A stretch of DNA of 64,000 nucleotides from NCBI GenBank assembly GCA_964391355.1, contig CAYMJY010000001.1, positions 4,340 to 68,339 on the forward strand, read 5' to 3'. Origin of the DNA: an uncultured Dehalococcoidia bacterium (GTDB lineage: Bacteria > Chloroflexota > Dehalococcoidia > Lucifugimonadales > Australimonadaceae). The notes under the pieces were generated by a model. It was given only the letters and a program-made list of their open reading frames with translations. It did not search any database and was not told the origin of the DNA. The position numbers and the translations under genes were made by a program. Numbering within the stretch: position 1 is the stretch's first letter; every line of letters begins with the position of its first letter. Below, piece after piece: positions 6,691 through 57,555 of this stretch.

Positions 6691-7473
6691 GTTGCGCGTG
6701 TTGGACTGATTCTCGAGTATGAAGGAACCAGCTATGCTGGATTTCAGCGTCAAGCCGAACACACTACTATTCAATCGAAAGTAGAGGAATCGATTAGACT
6801 TCTTACTGGGTCAACTTCTTTAGTTTCAGGGGCAGGAAGAACTGATGCTGGAGTGCACGCTACCGGACAGGTCATTGCTTTTAATTTAAATAAAGCTTTT
6901 TCTTTAGAAAAACTTCAGAGTGGGTTAAATGCATACCTCCCGGCAGATATTGCTGTAAAGGATATTTATGAAGTTCCCTTAGACTTCGATCCTAGACGGC
7001 ATGCGTTATCAAGGGTTTATAGATACACAATCCAAATAGGGAAAATACGTTCTCCATTGAGAAGTCGATTCGTTTATGAAGTCAAGAATCCTTTAGATGT
7101 TGAAAATATGGCTCAAGCCTTGACTTTGATTGAAGGTAATCATGATTTCTCTCCTTTTTCAGGCCGAATGGACCCTGAGAAGAGCAGTATGAGAACAATT
7201 TTGCGAACTGAGGTTTGTCGTGTTGGACCAGAAGTTTATGTGGAGATAGAGGGTAATGCATTCTTGCCACAGCAAATGAGAAGAACTGTTGGTGCTTTGA
7301 TAAAAATTGGAACAGGGTCAAGGCGCTATAATTATCTCAAGGATTTGGTTGATCACGGTAAAAAGGGAGATGCTTCTTGGGTAATTCCCGCAAAAGGATT
7401 ATGCTTGTTAGCAGTTAAGTATCAGAGGTTCCCTCCAGTTAATTATGCAGATTCAAAAAACGACAAAACATAG
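6691..7473 (+). CDS. truA: tRNA pseudouridine(38-40) synthase TruA (start codon unresolved)
   Basis: The ORF track starts at GTG 6853. The same frame is open from 6673 and encodes the conserved TruA N-terminus VARVGLILEYEGTSYAGFQRQ...GAGRTDAGVHATGQV, which includes the catalytic Asp motif. There is no ATG, GTG or TTG between the frame stop (TGA 6670-6672) and 6853, so the 5' coordinate is approximate. Confidence 0.8.
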   Translation, partial: VARVGLILEYEGTSYAGFQRQAEHTTIQSKVEESIRLLTGSTSLVSGAGRTDAGVHATGQVIAFNLNKAFSLEKLQSGLNAYLPADIAVKDIYEVPLDFDPRRHALSRVYRYTIQIGKIRSPLRSRFVYEVKNPLDVENMAQALTLIEGNHDFSPFSGRMDPEKSSMRTILRTEVCRVGPEVYVEIEGNAFLPQQMRRTVGALIKIGTGSRRYNYLKDLVDHGKKGDASWVIPAKGLCLLAVKYQRFPPVNYADSKNDKT

Positions 7474-32409: not shown

Positions 32410-33318
32410 ATGGATCATGAAAAGATAGGAGTAGCCATTGTTGGCTCCGGAAACATAGGCACAGACCTGATGCTAAAGCTTGCCGATCACCCTAGGCTTG
32501 AAATGAGATTAATGGTTGGCATTGATCCAAATTCTGAAGGCTTAGCAATGGCCAAGCAAATGGGATATCAAGTAACTGCTAATGGTATTGAGGGATTTAA
32601 AGAGCATCATGATTTGGTAAAAATTGTATACGAATCAACCAGTGCGAAAGCCCACATAGCAAACGCACCTGTCTATAAAGAGTTGGAAAAGATAGCTATC
32701 GATCTAACGCCTGCATCTGTGGGTCCGTATGTTGTGCCGTATGTGAATATTGGAGATGTGCTTGATGAACCAAACGTCAATTTAATTACGTGCGGTGGAC
32801 AGGCGACAATCCCCATGGTTAATGCGGTGTCAAAAGTAACAAGGGTTCCATACGCCGAGATTGTTGCAACTATTGCCTCTAAAAGTGCGGGCCCAGGTAC
32901 AAGAGCTAACATAGATGAATTCACTGAAACCACAGCTACAGGCATCGTGAGAATTGGTGGTGCTGAAAAGGGTAAGGCTATTATTATTCTCAATCCCGCA
33001 GACCCGCCTATCATAATGAGGGACACTGTTTATTGCCAAGTAGAGGAAATGGACAAAGAGGCTATACTTGGCTCCATTCATGACACGGTTAAGAGGATTC
33101 AAACGTACGTACCTGGTTATCGGCTACGCGTAGATCCGATTTTCTATGACGATAGAGTTGTAATAACAATAGAGGTCGAGGGCGCAGGAATGTATTTGCC
33201 CAAGTATTCAGGTAATTTGGATATTATGACAGCGGCCGCTGTAGAAGTGGGCGATCAATTTGCTAGAAGCCTATTGGGCTTGCCAACTCAAACAGCACCA
33301 ACTGCAGGAGGGGCATAA
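32410..33318 (+). CDS. mhpF: acetaldehyde dehydrogenase (acetylating)
   Basis: 302-aa ORF with [19 protein letters not shown] and the catalytic-Cys context [14 protein letters not shown]. Paired with the aldolase. Confidence 0.9.
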
Positions 33319-33319
33319 A

Positions 33320-34354
33320 ATGTCCATTAAGCGAAAAATCAGACTCGTCGATTCCACCATGCGTGACGGAAGCCATCCGATGGCTCATCAATTCACCGCA
33401 GAACAAGTCACCCAGATTGCACAAGCTCTTGATGGAGCTGGTATTCCTTTAGTTGAAATTTCTCATGGTGACGGCCTAGGTGGTTCGTCTCTGAATTATG
33501 GATTCTCAAAAGAAGATGAACAAGATTTAATAGCAGCAGTCAATTCAGCGATGTCTAATTCCCGTATCACCGTTTTGCTTTTACCAGGCATAGGGATTCA
33601 AGAAGATTTAAAAGAATCCTATGACCGCGGGGCAAGAGCAGTTCGCGTGGCAACTCACTGTACTGAAGCAGACATTGCAATTCAGCATATTGGCCTGGCA
33701 CGTGATTTGGGTATGGAAACGCTGGGGTTTTTAATGATGGCCCATATGATTGAACCTGCTGACCTCGTAGAACAAGCAAAAATCCATGAATCTTCAGGTG
33801 CAGAAGCAGTGTACGTTACTGATTCTGCAGGAGCGTTACGCCCGGATGGTGTACGAGCGAGGGTATCTGCGTTACGTGAAGCCTTGGACCCAAAAACCAA
33901 AATTGGCATTCATTGCCACAACAATTTAGGCCTTGGTATAGGTAACTCCCTAGCTGCAGTGGAAGAAGGAGCCGAGTACGTGGATGGTTGTTTGGGAGGT
34001 TTAGGCGCTGGTGCTGGTAACGCTCAGACTGAAGTTTTGGCATCTGTTTTAGAGTTAGAAGGCTATGAAACCGGTGTAGACATATACAAAATCATGGATG
34101 CAGCTGAGGATGTAGTAAAGCCAATGATGCAAAGACCGCAAATTATTGATAGAGCCAGCTTGGTTCTCGGTTATGCAGGTGTTTACTCAAGTTTTTTGTT
34201 GCACACATATAGGGCCGCTGCAAAGTTCAATATTGAACCACGTGATATTTTAATGGAATTAGGAAAGCGCAAAATTGTTGGGGGACAGGAAGATTCAATT
34301 CTTGACCTTGCAGCAGAGTTAGCGTCAGAGCAAGAAAAAACAACTGCTAGCTAA
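33320..34354 (+). CDS. mhpE: 4-hydroxy-2-oxovalerate aldolase
   Basis: MSIKRKIRLVDSTMRDGSHPMAHQF... The start is set at ATG 33320, preceded by GGAGGGG and 1 nt after the mhpF stop, rather than the track's TTG 33260. Confidence 0.9.
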   Translation: MSIKRKIRLVDSTMRDGSHPMAHQFTAEQVTQIAQALDGAGIPLVEISHGDGLGGSSLNYGFSKEDEQDLIAAVNSAMSNSRITVLLLPGIGIQEDLKESYDRGARAVRVATHCTEADIAIQHIGLARDLGMETLGFLMMAHMIEPADLVEQAKIHESSGAEAVYVTDSAGALRPDGVRARVSALREALDPKTKIGIHCHNNLGLGIGNSLAAVEEGAEYVDGCLGGLGAGAGNAQTEVLASVLELEGYETGVDIYKIMDAAEDVVKPMMQRPQIIDRASLVLGYAGVYSSFLLHTYRAAAKFNIEPRDILMELGKRKIVGGQEDSILDLAAELASEQEKTTAS

Positions 34355-34359
34355 AACTT

Positions 34360-34397
34360 AAAACCCGAACATGAATCATGATTTATGTTCGGGTTTT
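34360..34397. terminator. bidirectional intrinsic terminator between convergent genes
   Basis: aaaacccgaacat-(12 nt, itself near-palindromic)-atgttcgggtttt: a 13-bp perfect stem with A- and T-tracts. The right arm overlaps the last codons of the minus-strand gene. Confidence 0.6.
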
Positions 34398-34997
34398 AAT
34401 CGTTCCGTCCCATTCTTCTAAAGGCGTGCAATGCCACCACCATCTTTCGTCAACTGACTCCCTACCTGAAATATCTGCTCTCCCTGTTGCCCAAAGTAAA
34501 TCTAGCCAAGGATCCGAGCTGAGAATAACCCAAGGGAATAGGCGGGTTAGTATTTTAATGACTAAATCGCTATCAGGAGTGAAAGAAACTCCTAAGCCTT
34601 GAGAAATATCATAGCTGTGCAAGACTATTTCAGCGCAAGTCATAGCAACATAACCTGTGGAGTCGGCCATTCCAGCGGGATGAAATACCCTATCGTCCTT
34701 ACCCATTTGTTTTGCCAGAGCAATCACAATTTGTGTTGTCGATTTAAATATTTCGAGTGAATCCCACACTGGAATTTTCGAATTAATGTCTCGGAAAACT
34801 GGGATTGCGTTCTGCGATCGTGTTGCTAAGCGAATAGAATAATTCAACGTTACATTTATTAAATGGTTAAGAGTTTCGAGACAACTCCATTCTAGCCTTC
34901 CTGCTCCATTGCCCCATTCAGACTCCTCGCTTTTAGATAAAGCTAAAAGGCTAAAATCCAAAGCGGTAGCGATGCTATTTCCATTTAGACTAGACAT
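34383..34997 (-). CDS. hypothetical protein, possibly DinB/maleylpyruvate-isomerase-N-terminal-like
   Basis: 204-aa ORF. The spacing of conserved His, Glu and Trp residues (LETLNHLINV, FHPAG, AEIVLHSYD, LLWATGR) reminds me of the mycothiol-dependent MDMPI/DinB-like superfamily. This is a weak call. Confidence 0.45.
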   Translation of the reverse strand: MSSLNGNSIATALDFSLLALSKSEESEWGNGAGRLEWSCLETLNHLINVTLNYSIRLATRSQNAIPVFRDINSKIPVWDSLEIFKSTTQIVIALAKQMGKDDRVFHPAGMADSTGYVAMTCAEIVLHSYDISQGLGVSFTPDSDLVIKILTRLFPWVILSSDPWLDLLWATGRADISGRESVDERWWWHCTPLEEWDGTIKTRT

Positions 34998-35078
34998 GGG
35001 GGTATATTGGAACAGATCACCAATTTTCTATCAACCTACTCCGATTGACTGATATGATGTTTTGCTTAAGGAGCCTTA

Positions 35079-36965
35079 GTGGAAATTCGAAATATTGAAG
35101 TTACTTTAAAAGAGGTCGATAGTACTGGTACTCCAGTGGTCGAGATTGATGACCAAAAACTACCAATCTTTGGCGCAATTAAGGGGGAACGAGTACACAT
35201 CACTGCTCAAATATCCTCAAATAAAGCAAGTGAAATTCAATTGTCGCAAGTGATAGAAAAATCCATACACCGTGTGGATGCCCCTTGCATACATTTTGGT
35301 GAGTGTACCGGGTGTCAGTGGCAACATATCAGTTACCAACACCAACTATCAATGAAATACCAAATTGTTATAAATGCTTTTAAAGGGGTGAGGGATTTTG
35401 ATGTTAAGGACATTATGCCAACTCTTCCTAGCCCTAAACAATATGGATACCGTAACCATGCAAGGTTCACTGTTAGTAAAAGAGAAGGTCTCTTGGGTTT
35501 TATTAATAAAGAAAGCAGGTCACATATAGCAATATCAGAATGCAAAATCATGGACTGGCGAATTAACGAGATACTCGCCTCTATTCAAGGGAAAGTTAAT
35601 GAGACAGCGCAACTTGCTGTACGTGTAGGACAGCATACTGATTCGCGTATGGTCCAACCCCGCTTATTAACTTCAGATGTGCCAATAAACACAGGACAGG
35701 AATATTATCAAGAAAGGATTAAAGAGCGAACTTTCAGGATAGCGTCGCCTTCCTTTTTTCAAGTTAATACTGAACAGGCCGAGCATGTTGTTGACTTGGT
35801 TATCCAAGCTTTGCATTTAAAAGGCGATGAAGTAGTAATTGATGCTTACGCTGGTGTTGGTATATTCGCTGTAATGCTCGCACCTCATGTGAAAAAAGTA
35901 ATAGGGATTGAATATTCAGAGAAAGCTGTTTCCGATGCTGCATTTAATGCTCAAGGACTTCCTCAAGTGGAGTTCAAACTTGGTAAATCAGAAGTAGTTC
36001 TCAGGCAATTAACATCGCAACTAGATGATGTGGATGCAGTTATTTTGGATCCCCCTAGAAGTGGTTGTGAAAAGGAAGCACTTAAATCTTTGATTGACCT
36101 TGCACCTAGGCGAATTGTTTACGTCTCTTGTGAACCTGTTTCATTAGCGAGAGATATCGATATTCTTTTATCAGGTCCTTTCAAAATTGATAAAATTCAG
36201 CCTGTTGATATGTTTCCTCAAACACGTCACGTAGAGTGCATCGTTACATTAAATCGAGATCAGGAGAAAGTAGATATTCGATCAAATAGAGGGAATTTAG
36301 TTCTTGCATCGAAATCTCCTAGAAGGCAGGATATTTTAAGCCGACTAGGAATAAAATTTATTACTAACCATCCATCAGTTGTTGAGAAGCCAGAAGAAAA
36401 TGCCAAAGCTGATGACCTTGCAATTTCACGAGCCTTAGAGAAGGCTAGAACCGTGGCCAGAGGATTCACTAATGGGGTTGTGATTGGTGCCGACACAGTC
36501 GTCCAGTTAGGTGATTTGGTTCTAGGAAAACCTGCTGACCGTGCAGAAGCATTTAAGATGCTTAACTTGCTCCGCGATAGGGAGCATAACGTAATCACGG
36601 CGATAGCTCTAGTGGATGCTAATACAGATGAATATATAGTTGATCATCTAATATCCAGAGTACGCATGCGTAATTATTCGGAAAAAGAAATGACCGACTT
36701 CATTGAGACAGGACATTCTTTTGACAAAGCAGGAGCTTATGCGGTCCAAGATGAATTTTTCTACCCAGCAGCAGAAGTTTCAGGTTGTTATTTAAATGTG
36801 GTTGGCCTGCCGGTATGTAAGTTGGTAGAACTTTTTGAACAATTTGGAGTTCCTCCAATGATCAACGTTCAACAGGGATGGAAAGAGCTTGTTAGATGTC
36901 CTGCTTGTTCGAGAAAGATTACTAATATGAACATGGTTCAGAATAAAAAAGAGTCAGGTATTTAG
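35079..36965 (+). CDS. fusion protein: RumA/TrmA-family RNA (uracil-C5)-methyltransferase + Maf-like nucleoside-triphosphate pyrophosphatase
   Basis: 628-aa single ORF with a GTG start 7 nt after AAGGAG. Residues ~1-405 carry CIHFGECTGC plus a later Cys (Fe-S cluster pattern), DAYAGVGIFA, ILDPPRSGC, VYVSCEP and DMFPQTRHVE. Residues ~415-600 carry LVLASKSPRRQDIL, GADTVV, GKP, DKAGAYAVQD and NVVGLP (Maf). A short CPACS tail follows. Confidence 0.85.
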   Translation: MEIRNIEVTLKEVDSTGTPVVEIDDQKLPIFGAIKGERVHITAQISSNKASEIQLSQVIEKSIHRVDAPCIHFGECTGCQWQHISYQHQLSMKYQIVINAFKGVRDFDVKDIMPTLPSPKQYGYRNHARFTVSKREGLLGFINKESRSHIAISECKIMDWRINEILASIQGKVNETAQLAVRVGQHTDSRMVQPRLLTSDVPINTGQEYYQERIKERTFRIASPSFFQVNTEQAEHVVDLVIQALHLKGDEVVIDAYAGVGIFAVMLAPHVKKVIGIEYSEKAVSDAAFNAQGLPQVEFKLGKSEVVLRQLTSQLDDVDAVILDPPRSGCEKEALKSLIDLAPRRIVYVSCEPVSLARDIDILLSGPFKIDKIQPVDMFPQTRHVECIVTLNRDQEKVDIRSNRGNLVLASKSPRRQDILSRLGIKFITNHPSVVEKPEENAKADDLAISRALEKARTVARGFTNGVVIGADTVVQLGDLVLGKPADRAEAFKMLNLLRDREHNVITAIALVDANTDEYIVDHLISRVRMRNYSEKEMTDFIETGHSFDKAGAYAVQDEFFYPAAEVSGCYLNVVGLPVCKLVELFEQFGVPPMINVQQGWKELVRCPACSRKITNMNMVQNKKESGI

Positions 36966-36966
36966 A

Positions 36967-37263
36967 ATGGACATCTTAGGAATAGGAATCACGGAGATTG
37001 CTGTAATAATGGTTGTTGGGGTGATTTTCCTCGGTCCAGCTAAAATCGTAGAAATTGCAAGTAAGATGGGGTTTTATTGGCGAACGGCGCAAGGATTTCT
37101 GCGAGAGGCAGCCGATGCTGCAACTATTAAATTAGATCTTCCAGAATCCAACCCCGTACAACCCGAGTATAAAAATTTGGAAGAGCCTTCAGACTCAATT
37201 AAAAGGGCCGAGAAAGAACCTGACGAACCAGATTCAAAGAATTCCCTAGAAGAGAATAGATAA
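36967..37263 (+). CDS. Tat translocase TatA/B-family protein (TatB-like)
   Basis: 98-aa ORF with an N-terminal TM helix, an amphipathic helix (GITEIAVIMVVGVIFLGPAKIVEIASKMG) and an acidic tail. Directly upstream of tatC. Confidence 0.75.
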   Translation: MDILGIGITEIAVIMVVGVIFLGPAKIVEIASKMGFYWRTAQGFLREAADAATIKLDLPESNPVQPEYKNLEEPSDSIKRAEKEPDEPDSKNSLEENR

Positions 37264-37265
37264 TT

Positions 37266-37991
37266 ATGACGGCCGAAATGAGTTTGAGGGAACACCTAGA
37301 TGAGCTTAGGAGACGTTTGATTTGGGTCGTACTCTTTGTCATCCTTTCAATGGTTATTGCCTTTGTTTTTAGGGATCAGATTTTAGGTTTCTTATTAGAG
37401 CCAGGTTTTTCAAAATTAGATGAAAGACCAATAGCTACTGAGGTGCTTGAAGTAGTAGGTGTTACATTTAAAGTCACATTTATGGTTGGTCTGGTGGTTT
37501 CTTTGCCCGTTGTTATTTACCAGATAGTTCGTTTTGTATCACCTGGTTTGACTAAGAGAGAAAAGGTGTACCTTCTTTTTTTCATACCAGTAATTCTGAT
37601 AGCTTTTATAGCAGGGGCTGCATTTGCATACTACGTTTTATTCCCACCAGCTTTTGAATTTTTGTTCAATTTCGGCACTGACAATGTAGATCCTGAAATA
37701 CGTGTATCTAGCTATATCAACGTAGTGATTTCCCTTATGTTTTGGATGGGAACAGTATTTCAAATACCCTTGGTAATGTTCATTCTAGCAAGGGTTGGAG
37801 TCGTCACACCCAAGTGGTTAGGTAGGTTCAGAAAGTACGCAGTAGTACTAGCATTTATTGCAGCTGCAATAATTACACCGACTTTCGACCCTATAAACCA
37901 AACGCTAGTTGCAGTGCCAATAATTGTTCTTTACGAGATAGGTATTTTGATGGCGCGAATAGGCAGGCGTTTAAAACAAAGAAAATCTTAG
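37266..37991 (+). CDS. tatC: Tat translocase subunit TatC
   Basis: 241-aa ORF with six TM helices and the LREHLDELRRRLI N-terminus typical of TatC. Confidence 0.9.
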   Translation: MTAEMSLREHLDELRRRLIWVVLFVILSMVIAFVFRDQILGFLLEPGFSKLDERPIATEVLEVVGVTFKVTFMVGLVVSLPVVIYQIVRFVSPGLTKREKVYLLFFIPVILIAFIAGAAFAYYVLFPPAFEFLFNFGTDNVDPEIRVSSYINVVISLMFWMGTVFQIPLVMFILARVGVVTPKWLGRFRKYAVVLAFIAAAIITPTFDPINQTLVAVPIIVLYEIGILMARIGRRLKQRKS

Positions 37992-38188
37992 TTCTTTTTT
38001 TTCTTTGAAGTAACTTCAGGAACAGTTTTTTCTTCGACACTTGATTCATCAGAGGTCACTGATTTTCTGAACTCCCTAATCCCACGGCCAATAGCACCGC
38101 CGACTTCAGGAACCCGGCTTGCACCAAAAATCACTAAAACGATCACTAAGATAATTGTCAATTCTGGCCATCCAATACCGAAAGGCAT
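37988..38188 (-). CDS. tatA: Tat translocase subunit TatA
   Basis: 66-aa ORF MPFGIGWPELTIILVIVLVIFGASRVPEVGGAIGRGIREFRKS. Its 3' end overlaps the tatC end by 4 nt in convergent orientation. Confidence 0.85.
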   Translation of the reverse strand: MPFGIGWPELTIILVIVLVIFGASRVPEVGGAIGRGIREFRKSVTSDESSVEEKTVPEVTSKKKKN

Positions 38189-38227
38189 ATTTTTCTCCTG
38201 CTCTGAATTAATTTCAGTAATGATACG

Positions 38228-38791
38228 CTAGCGCACACCTCTTACCAAAACAACCCCTGTTAACAATGCAAAGATACCTAATGCGCGTAACAAGTCAAAT
38301 CTATGGATCGCACCACCAAAAGTTCCAAAATGGTCATGAACAACGGCCCCGGCCATTTGCCCTGCCAATACGATTACGAGATAAAGGCCTACTCCAATTT
38401 TAGGTCCAATAAAACCAGCACCAATTAGGAAAGGTAAAGCAAATAATCCAGTTATAGCAAAATAGATATTTAAACCTCGCATCACTACTAATAGCACAAC
38501 CATAGATAGTGACCCTAATACGACATAAAAAGTCAAACGGTCTAAAGGCTGGGGCAATGATATATTCCCTTGCCTGATTGCAAGAATACTTAGGATGATC
38601 GCAACGCCCAAGATAGTTGATACTAGGGAAGTAAAGGCACCTTCAACAGAACCTCGTGACTTCGAAATTGCAGAAATCATTACGAGTTGAGTGGCGTTTC
38701 CAAATCCTATTGTGAAAGCTAGTACTAAGTAAAAAATTTCTAACAATGAATCTCCTAGGCTCTTATTATATTTTACCGACTGTACTGGCAC
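38228..38791 (-). CDS. DMT-superfamily membrane protein (DUF606/YdcZ-like)
   Basis: Hydrophobic 187-aa ORF with LAGQMAGAVVHDHFGTFGG, resembling the DUF606 signature. The exact start is uncertain because the ORF overlaps the holA end. Confidence 0.6.
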   Translation of the reverse strand: MPVQSVKYNKSLGDSLLEIFYLVLAFTIGFGNATQLVMISAISKSRGSVEGAFTSLVSTILGVAIILSILAIRQGNISLPQPLDRLTFYVVLGSLSMVVLLVVMRGLNIYFAITGLFALPFLIGAGFIGPKIGVGLYLVIVLAGQMAGAVVHDHFGTFGGAIHRFDLLRALGIFALLTGVVLVRGVR

Positions 38792-57478: not shown

Positions 57479-57555
57479 CGGGGAGTGGCGCAGCTTGGTA
57501 GCGCGCTACGTTCGGGGCGTAGAGGTCGTGGGTTCGAATCCCGCCTCCCCGACCA
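57479..57555 (+). tRNA. tRNA-Pro (anticodon CGG), CCA encoded
   Basis: Folded by hand. Acceptor stem CGGGGAG/CUCCCCG; D stem GCGC/GCGC. Anticodon stem CUACG/CGUAG with loop UU-CGG-GG (G37). T arm GUGGG-UUCGAAU-CCCGC; 3' ACCA. A perfect TATAAT hexamer lies at 57456-57461. Confidence 0.93.

Follow-up and report, generated by a model that had tools for sequence, protein, structure and literature searches.

A gene conserved in uncultured Dehalococcoidia joins a predicted RNA uridine-5 methyltransferase to a Maf pyrophosphatase domain

Results

One gene encodes both a methyltransferase and a Maf domain

In the 64,000-nucleotide (nt) stretch of DNA analysed here, hereafter the window (contig CAYMJY010000001.1 of assembly GCA_964391355.1, from an uncultured Dehalococcoidia bacterium), one gene was found to encode an RNA uridine-5 methyltransferase and a Maf domain in one frame. 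It is a single genuine gene, conserved in uncultured Dehalococcoidia and SAR202 genomes, and its product is predicted from profile matches and a structural model to be one bifunctional polypeptide, made up of a RumA-type methyltransferase and a YhdE-type Maf. The gene lies at 35079..36965 (features are on the forward, +, strand unless stated otherwise) and, as had been reported in a preliminary description of this DNA, it is an uninterrupted frame of 628 codons, which direct reading showed to run from a GTG start to a TAG stop. A Shine-Dalgarno-like AAGGAG, read from the sequence at 35068..35073, precedes the start with a 5-nt spacer, and two homologues (P0001 and P0002) can be aligned from residue 1 of the fusion protein.

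Domains were assigned by profile searches against Pfam and NCBIfam, judged by the curated cut-offs, and both halves scored above these cut-offs in one chain. This bears out the RumA/TrmA and Maf assignment of the preliminary description, and the motifs on which that assignment was based were all found: DAYAGVG (residues 255-261), DPPRSG (324-329) and SCEP (350-353) in the first half, and ASKSPRR (410-416), GADTVV (470-475) and DKAGAYAVQ (549-557) in the second. The profiles were also expected to detect a TRAM or RumA N-terminus together with tRNA_U5-meth_tr and Maf; the last two were recovered in a single chain, but the Pfam TRAM match was below threshold. The AlphaFold2 model of the fusion protein, built on 74 fused homologues, had a mean predicted local distance difference test (pLDDT) of 90.1 and a predicted template modelling score (pTM) of 0.85. 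When Foldseek was run against solved structures, no single solved chain covering both halves was found.

The same architecture was detected in many other genomes. All of the 120 best homologues (608-700 amino acids, aa) carry both Pfam domains in a single chain, and as a lower bound there are at least 120 distinct fused sequences or clusters. They are 41-59% identical to the window protein and several are located on contigs of 1-3.7 Mb. The organism-labelled matches were all Chloroflexota (Chloroflexi), Dehalococcoidia or SAR202, from metagenome-assembled genomes (MAGs), and in the databases each carries the name of one half alone, "RlmD" or "(septum formation protein) Maf". Mean pairwise identity among the fusions was 0.62-0.68 in the TRAM, central and methyltransferase domains and 0.62 in Maf; this comparable conservation of all domains indicates that neither half is decaying.

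A missed stop codon or a frameshift in this assembly could, in principle, have merged two genes, and about a dozen related genomes do carry rumA and maf as separate genes, a finding that the preliminary description had named as one that would refute the fusion. However, the gene in the window is itself not split, and the separate genes reveal the route by which the fusion arose rather than proving a split here. The independent Logan assembly ERR13064784 (L086) is 99.1% identical at the DNA level, with 17 substitutions in 1887 nt, none of which is in the linker between the two halves, and the junction is read through identically. The length of the linker is conserved, and codon-level conservation runs on through the junction. 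Together with the numerous fused clusters, several of them on multi-megabase contigs, the comparison with L086 makes an assembly artefact extremely improbable, and it was rejected.

The two halves are joined by a linker of fixed length

In the AlphaFold2 model, the halves are connected by a linker of 12 residues (aa 394-405; 36258..36293) that is predicted to be helical, with the helix spanning residues 395-404 in a block with pLDDT of 92-94. In 109 of 121 fusions, exactly 26 residues separate E386 in the methyltransferase half from S413 in the Maf half, although identity within the linker is only 0.39. The unfused relatives have no equivalent of this helical segment. The fixed length and predicted helix, together with the pTM of 0.85 (in itself only indirect evidence of packing), suggest a defined rather than a floppy arrangement of the two halves.

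An AGGAG sequence is present at 36262-36266, within the linker codons (D-Q-E-K), and may be a remnant of the ribosome-binding site that served maf when it was still a separate gene. An internal start for a separate Maf was considered and rejected, since there is no in-frame ATG, GTG or TTG in the approximately 45 nt between this AGGAG and the first Maf residues.

The first half is a predicted Fe-S RNA m5U methyltransferase

Judging from its profile matches, conserved residues and modelled fold, the segment of residues 1-393 is a complete Fe-S RumA/RlmD-type RNA 5-methyluridine (m5U) methyltransferase. It begins with a TRAM-like beta-barrel (aa 1-62; 35079..35264), recognised from five strands in the model and from the Foldseek alignments to RumA and RlmCD; the window protein itself is below the threshold of Pfam TRAM (PF01938), and many of its homologues do score. 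The barrel is followed by the RumA central domain (aa 63-200; 35265..35678), which contains four conserved cysteines, C70 (35286-35288), C76 (35304-35306), C79 (35313-35315) and C155 (35541-35543), that are predicted to be the ligands of a [4Fe-4S] cluster. These are invariant in 74 aligned fusions and invariant or nearly so in an alignment of 121 sequences. The preliminary description was therefore right about the presence of the Fe-S cysteines but not about their spacing, which it gave as C-x6-C; it is C70-x5-C76-x2-C79 plus C155. This C-x5-C-x2-C...C arrangement matches that of the [4Fe-4S] ligands of E. coli RumA, Cys81, Cys87, Cys90 and Cys162.

The catalytic domain, an S-adenosylmethionine (SAM)-dependent uracil-C5 methyltransferase (aa 201-393; 35679..36257), was identified by Pfam tRNA_U5-meth_tr (PF05958) over residues 215-393, with 78.6 bits against a cut-off of 23. 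Its conserved landmarks are a SAM motif, DAYAGVG (35841-35861), the cysteine C351 of SCEP (36129-36131), which is the nucleophile, and E386 (36234-36236), which is the general base; residues D255, A256, A258, G259, E278, D324, P325, S350, C351 and E386 are invariant across the 121 sequences. For NCBIfam TIGR00479 (rumA), the score was 291.8 bits (cut-off 183.55). With NF009639, a stricter model for RlmD, the protein reached 236.8, under the cut-off of 458, and so the matches do not establish orthology with E. coli RlmD in particular.

Using Foldseek, the first approximately 400 residues matched RlmCD (5XJ2), RumA (2BH2/1UWV) and the tRNA m5U54 enzyme of Pyrococcus abyssi with template modelling scores normalised to the target, TM(target), of 0.77-0.80, the alignments to RumA and RlmCD spanning about 430-450 columns. 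The best solved relatives were S. pneumoniae RlmCD, the P. abyssi tRNA m5U54 methyltransferase and E. coli RumA. From this relationship, the methyltransferase half should methylate C5 of a specific uridine, namely the equivalents of 23S rRNA U1939 and/or U747, or possibly tRNA U54.

The second half is a YhdE-type Maf

The Maf nucleoside-triphosphate pyrophosphatase domain of the YhdE subfamily (aa 406-588; 36294..36842) was assigned from Pfam, alignments and Foldseek. Pfam Maf (PF02545) matched residues 406-588 over essentially the whole model, with 165.1 bits against a cut-off of 27 (1.8e-48), and NCBIfam TIGR00172 (maf) scored 136.8 bits against 117.15. TM(target) was 0.82-0.91 to YhdE, B. 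subtilis Maf and the Maf domain of human ASMTL, with YhdE at 0.89-0.91.

Maf proteins share an S-R-E-K-D-K signature, which in YhdE consists of Ser10, Arg13, Glu33, Lys52, Asp70 and Lys82 (PMC3899018). The corresponding residues in the window protein are S413 and R416 (in S413-P-R415-R416, 36315-36326), E436 (36384-36386), K455 (36441-36443), D472 (in D472-T473, 36492-36497) and K484 (36528-36530); the first five are invariant and K484 is present in 120 of the 121 sequences. A second motif separates the subfamilies, being R-T-Q (Arg12, Thr71, Gln153) in YhdE and W-Q-E in YceF, which is of the 7-methylguanosine triphosphate (m7GTP) type (PMC3899018). Here it reads R415-T473-Q557 (Q557, 36747-36749), with R415 and Q557 in all 121 sequences and T473 in 112 (Ser in the other 9), and a YceF-type Maf was rejected on this basis.

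Characterised YhdE-type enzymes act on dTTP, UTP, CTP, m5UTP, 5-methylcytidine triphosphate (m5CTP) and pseudo-UTP, and E. coli YhdE has its lowest KM and highest kcat/KM with m5UTP (PMC3899018). From its signature residues, the Maf half should hydrolyse pyrimidine nucleoside triphosphates (NTPs) to monophosphates (NMPs) and pyrophosphate. The starting premise of the preliminary description, a Maf of the type that acts on m5UTP, pseudo-UTP, dTTP and UTP, thus holds by homology through the R-T-Q and S-R-E-K-D-K signatures. No second copy of rumA or maf was found within the window.

A four-cysteine site at the end of the Maf half

The protein extends past the canonical Maf fold by a tail of 40 residues (aa 589-628; 36843..36962), which carries a CPAC motif and a predicted helix at residues 608-622. 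Two cysteines of this tail, C607 (36897-36899) and C610 (36906-36908), which are at the start of the C-terminal helix in the model, form a conserved set with C570 (36786-36788) and C580 (36816-36818), spaced C-x9-C-x26-C-x2-C (36786..36908) and bridging the end of the Maf core and the tail. C570, C580 and C607 are cysteine in all 121 fusions and C610 in 120, while the aligned positions of B. subtilis Maf and E. coli YhdE are not cysteine. Of the 150 nearest Maf representatives, 108 also have the Cys4 pattern, and stand-alone proteins are among them; loci with it include L010, L011, L013, L014, L091, L092, L094, L097 and L099. Variants have C-x-C in place of the second cysteine, or C-x4-C or C-x5-C tails instead of C-x2-C. 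The conservation of the four cysteines points to a putative metal site, probably a structural zinc or a second Fe-S cluster, and probably marks a previously undescribed Maf subgroup.

Split relatives reveal how the fusion arose

The preliminary description had proposed a survey of related genomes for fused and adjacent rumA and maf genes, and both states were found in Dehalococcoidia and SAR202. A scan of one genome per species identified 21 loci encoding both domains; the closest were all labelled Dehalococcoidia, SAR202 or Chloroflexota, and one locus was from a MAG labelled Anaerolineaceae. By hidden Markov model scan, eight of these loci have a single fused frame (L001-L007 and L012), and twelve have an individual maf gene immediately behind rumA, in the same orientation. 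The split genes are separated by an ATGA stop/start overlap in L045, by a few nt between stop and start in L015 and by a 20-nt gap in L020. In L008, a Dehalococcoidia MAG, a lone in-frame TAA (7180-7182) is all that lies between rumA and maf, and one substitution would restore the fusion; this TAA could be a sequencing error in that MAG.

Further unfused but adjacent rumA-maf pairs were found in L081, L082, L088, L094 and L097. The stand-alone Mafs nearest to the window Maf domain likewise come from Chloroflexi and SAR202, and three of the five that have enough flanking DNA are directly downstream of rumA (L081, L082 and L088). No maf was found within 6 kb of RumA relatives from Anaerolineae, Thermobaculum, Chloroflexia, Bacillota and others. 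In a metagenome scan seeded with Maf, the matches listed were mostly generic Mafs of other lineages; the relevant ones among them were three fused, two split and two of Cys4 type in which no rumA was detected, although for one of these the upstream DNA was too short to judge.

As rumA and maf are adjacent and often overlapping, they are probably translationally coupled in Dehalococcoidia. The presence of such unfused pairs in sister genomes makes it well supported, by comparison of the sequences, that the fusion arose by loss of the rumA stop codon between operon neighbours. On a rough neighbour-joining tree of the RumA domains (no support values), fused and split forms were interleaved, which hints that fusion or fission may have happened more than once.

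Genomic neighbourhood

Downstream of the fusion is a tatA-like gene (36967-37263; Pfam TatA_B_E), which starts 1 nt past the stop codon of the fusion, and then tatC (37266-37991; Pfam TatC). They belong to a rumA-maf-tatA-tatC string that is conserved across Dehalococcoidia; in 15 related loci rumA-maf is followed by tatC, and L081, L086 and L087 likewise have a Tat gene immediately after it. The loci with Tat linkage are L001-L014, L017, L045, L081, L086, L087, L089 and L090. Tail-less Mafs of other bacteria are found in a maf-radC-mreBCD arrangement of the Firmicutes type.

A second, better-scoring tatA of 66 aa (37988-38188, minus strand; Pfam 1.5e-18) is oriented convergently with tatC and overlaps the tatC stop codon; an inverted tatA of this kind was found again in roughly six of the related loci. 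Next to the fusion on its upstream side is a divergent open reading frame of 204 aa (34383-34997, minus strand) without a Pfam match, which adjoins the fusion elsewhere only in the 99%-identical contig L086. Further upstream (32410-34354), acetaldehyde dehydrogenase (acylating)-like and 4-hydroxy-2-oxovalerate aldolase-like genes were identified (DmpF/DmpG-like, of an aromatic meta-cleavage pathway), which are next to the fusion in no related locus. The sole tRNA gene of the window is a tRNA-Pro (CGG) at 57479-57555. A promoter and terminator scan of 34300-38300 gave no more sites than were found in shuffled sequences.

Discussion

The preliminary description had interpreted the fusion as a module of an m5U writer and a house-cleaning enzyme. 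The fusion itself, its domains, the Maf subfamily and the adjacency of rumA and maf support this interpretation; the coupling of the two functions is what we infer, and it is weakened by the tat linkage, by Mafs without rumA and by a fusion of Maf to RadC. That the two halves work together is plausible, and we lean, with some reserve, towards a write-and-clean module in which an m5U writer is coupled to an m5UTP pyrophosphatase, both encoded as one bifunctional polypeptide. In such a module, the N-terminal half would write m5U in rRNA or tRNA. RNA turnover would free m5UMP, which kinases would re-phosphorylate to m5UTP, and the Maf half would return this to the monophosphate, so that RNA polymerase would not scatter ribothymidine at random sites in new RNA. 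The fusion would ensure co-inheritance and an obligate 1:1 ratio of writer and cleaner. Each domain would act on its own substrate and no channelling is proposed, because the RNA decay and phosphorylation steps separate the substrates of the two halves. A study on Arabidopsis reports that m5U builds up in RNA once its catabolism is blocked (PMC10415118), so that, for at least one organism, the return of free m5U to RNA is a genuine problem.

The adjacency of rumA and maf in unfused relatives is neighbourhood evidence for a link. By a rough estimate, writers of m5U, pseudouridine or 5-methylcytidine (m5C) make up approximately 1% of genes, so it is unlikely that a chance neighbour of maf would be such a writer, and this is the point that most favours the module. 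Several observations weigh against it. The activity of YhdE-type enzymes on dTTP, UTP, pseudo-UTP and m5CTP is nearly as high, with no more than modest selectivity among pyrimidine NTPs, and specificity for m5UTP is therefore not established. The RNA target is not readable from the sequence, the closest solved relatives covering rRNA and tRNA enzymes alike, and a role in sanitising a nucleotide pool needs no stoichiometric fusion. Maf is as tightly linked to tatA-tatC, which have no evident functional relation to nucleotides; membership of the string alone is thus no sign of a shared function. One lineage (L089/L090) has maf-tatA-tatC without rumA, and other Cys-tail Mafs have neither rumA nor tat beside them. 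Finally, in protein P0269 (416 aa) Maf is fused to UPF0758_N and a RadC-like JAB domain, which mirrors the maf-radC gene order of loci L083-L085 and indicates that Maf can fuse with whatever adjoins it.

Some of these observations would also fit a neutral fusion of operon neighbours in a long-lived rumA-maf-tatA-tatC unit, in which Maf is a general pyrophosphatase of dTTP, UTP and modified pyrimidine NTPs, unrelated to the m5U that is made. The functionally unrelated tat genes of the string are equally conserved, in L089/L090 they stay with maf where rumA is missing, and Maf has also been joined to its other common neighbour, RadC, in P0269. The interleaving of fused and split forms on the tree suggests easy toggling between the two states, with just an in-frame stop between the genes in L008. 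On the other hand, the improbability of such a writer being a chance neighbour and the defined arrangement suggested by the linker and pTM both speak against neutrality, as does the retention of adjacency or fusion across sequences that are only 39-59% identical. A neutral fusion is thus a serious possibility, although we do not think it probable. Another explanation is that Maf acts mainly on dTTP and UTP, in keeping with its "multicopy-associated filamentation" role, tying the pyrimidine pool or the cell cycle, and not the removal of modified nucleotides, to ribosome maturation. Cells overexpressing YhdE had raised dTMP and UMP, and dTTP and UTP were the sole substrates confirmed in vivo (PMC3899018); a further study describes an effect of YhdE on growth (PMC4319933). 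However, there is no gene related to cell division in the locus, the canonical mreBCD/radC context is absent, and there is no evident mechanism by which an rRNA or tRNA methyltransferase could sense or regulate the pool, making this kind of growth coupling unlikely.

A stronger form of the write-and-clean module can be put forward only tentatively, and we regard it as doubtful: a structurally integrated "write-and-sanitise" enzyme, which would be the first writer physically tied to the pyrophosphatase of the matching modified NTP, with the lineage-specific Cys4 metal site of the Maf half adding a structural or regulatory layer. If this were true, clearance of m5UTP, and not dTTP depletion or division arrest, would be the physiological job of YhdE-type Maf.

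The role of Maf has long been ambiguous between division arrest via depletion of dTTP and UTP and house-cleaning of modified NTPs, and in the founding Maf study the levels of modified NTPs in vivo were below detection (PMC3899018). A conserved fusion and operon of a YhdE-type Maf with an m5U writer provides independent genomic evidence for the house-cleaning view and points to one substrate. With the fusion, both activities, and any mutual dependence between them, could be assayed on one recombinant protein. Because these proteins are named in public records for one of their halves alone, the annotation of the Dehalococcoidia and SAR202 genomes that carry the fusion misses half of the function.

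Comparison with known systems

The methyltransferase half resembles E. coli RlmD (RumA), S. pneumoniae RlmCD and P. abyssi PAB0719 in having a TRAM barrel, a central domain and a SAM-dependent catalytic domain, with a Cys nucleophile in S-C-x-P and a Glu base. In contrast to the solved RumA-type members, to which its identity is only about 24%, the window protein adds a C-terminal Maf via a helical linker. It also has cysteines at the cluster positions, whereas S. pneumoniae RlmCD lacks them at the aligned sites.

The Maf half has the S-R-E-K-D-K and R-T-Q signatures in common with E. coli YhdE and B. subtilis Maf (BSU28050), with 33-36% identity and a TM(target) of about 0.9. Unlike these, it is not a stand-alone protein and it has the extra 40-residue tail and the invariant Cys4. 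Its context is rumA and tatAC, compared with maf-radC-mreBCD for the tail-less stand-alone Mafs.

The unfused rumA-maf pairs of Dehalococcoidia (for example, L008-L015 except the fused L012, and L081) encode orthologous proteins in the same order and on the same strand, with tatA-tatC downstream, and most have the same Cys-rich Maf tail. They differ in that rumA has its own stop codon and maf a separate start, and there is no helical linker.

In eukaryotes, Maf domains occur fused to a predicted methyltransferase, as in human ASMTL, and some archaeal maf genes adjoin a methyltransferase gene; Tchigvintsev et al. (2013) took these fusions and neighbours as a hint of a functional relationship (PMC3899018). 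The Maf domain of ASMTL was among the best sequence and structure matches to the Maf half of the window protein. However, the order in human ASMTL is reversed, with Maf at the N-terminus, whereas in the window protein the methyltransferase comes first and is of the RNA U5 type (PF05958). The partner in ASMTL is a predicted methyltransferase named after acetylserotonin O-methyltransferase and not an RNA m5U writer, while the window fusion is bacterial and has a partner whose product base matches the best substrate of E. coli YhdE. The window fusion is therefore analogous to, but independent of, the ASMTL-type fusion.

In a full-text literature search, no paper describing a RumA/RlmD-Maf architecture was found, in agreement with the preliminary description, which knew of no characterisation of it. 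Taken singly, the two halves are unremarkable members of well-studied families, and the general link between Maf and methyltransferases was already noted in 2013 (PMC3899018). Compared with these known systems, the fusion is a useful Rosetta-stone clue and a correction to annotation, rather than a new type of system.

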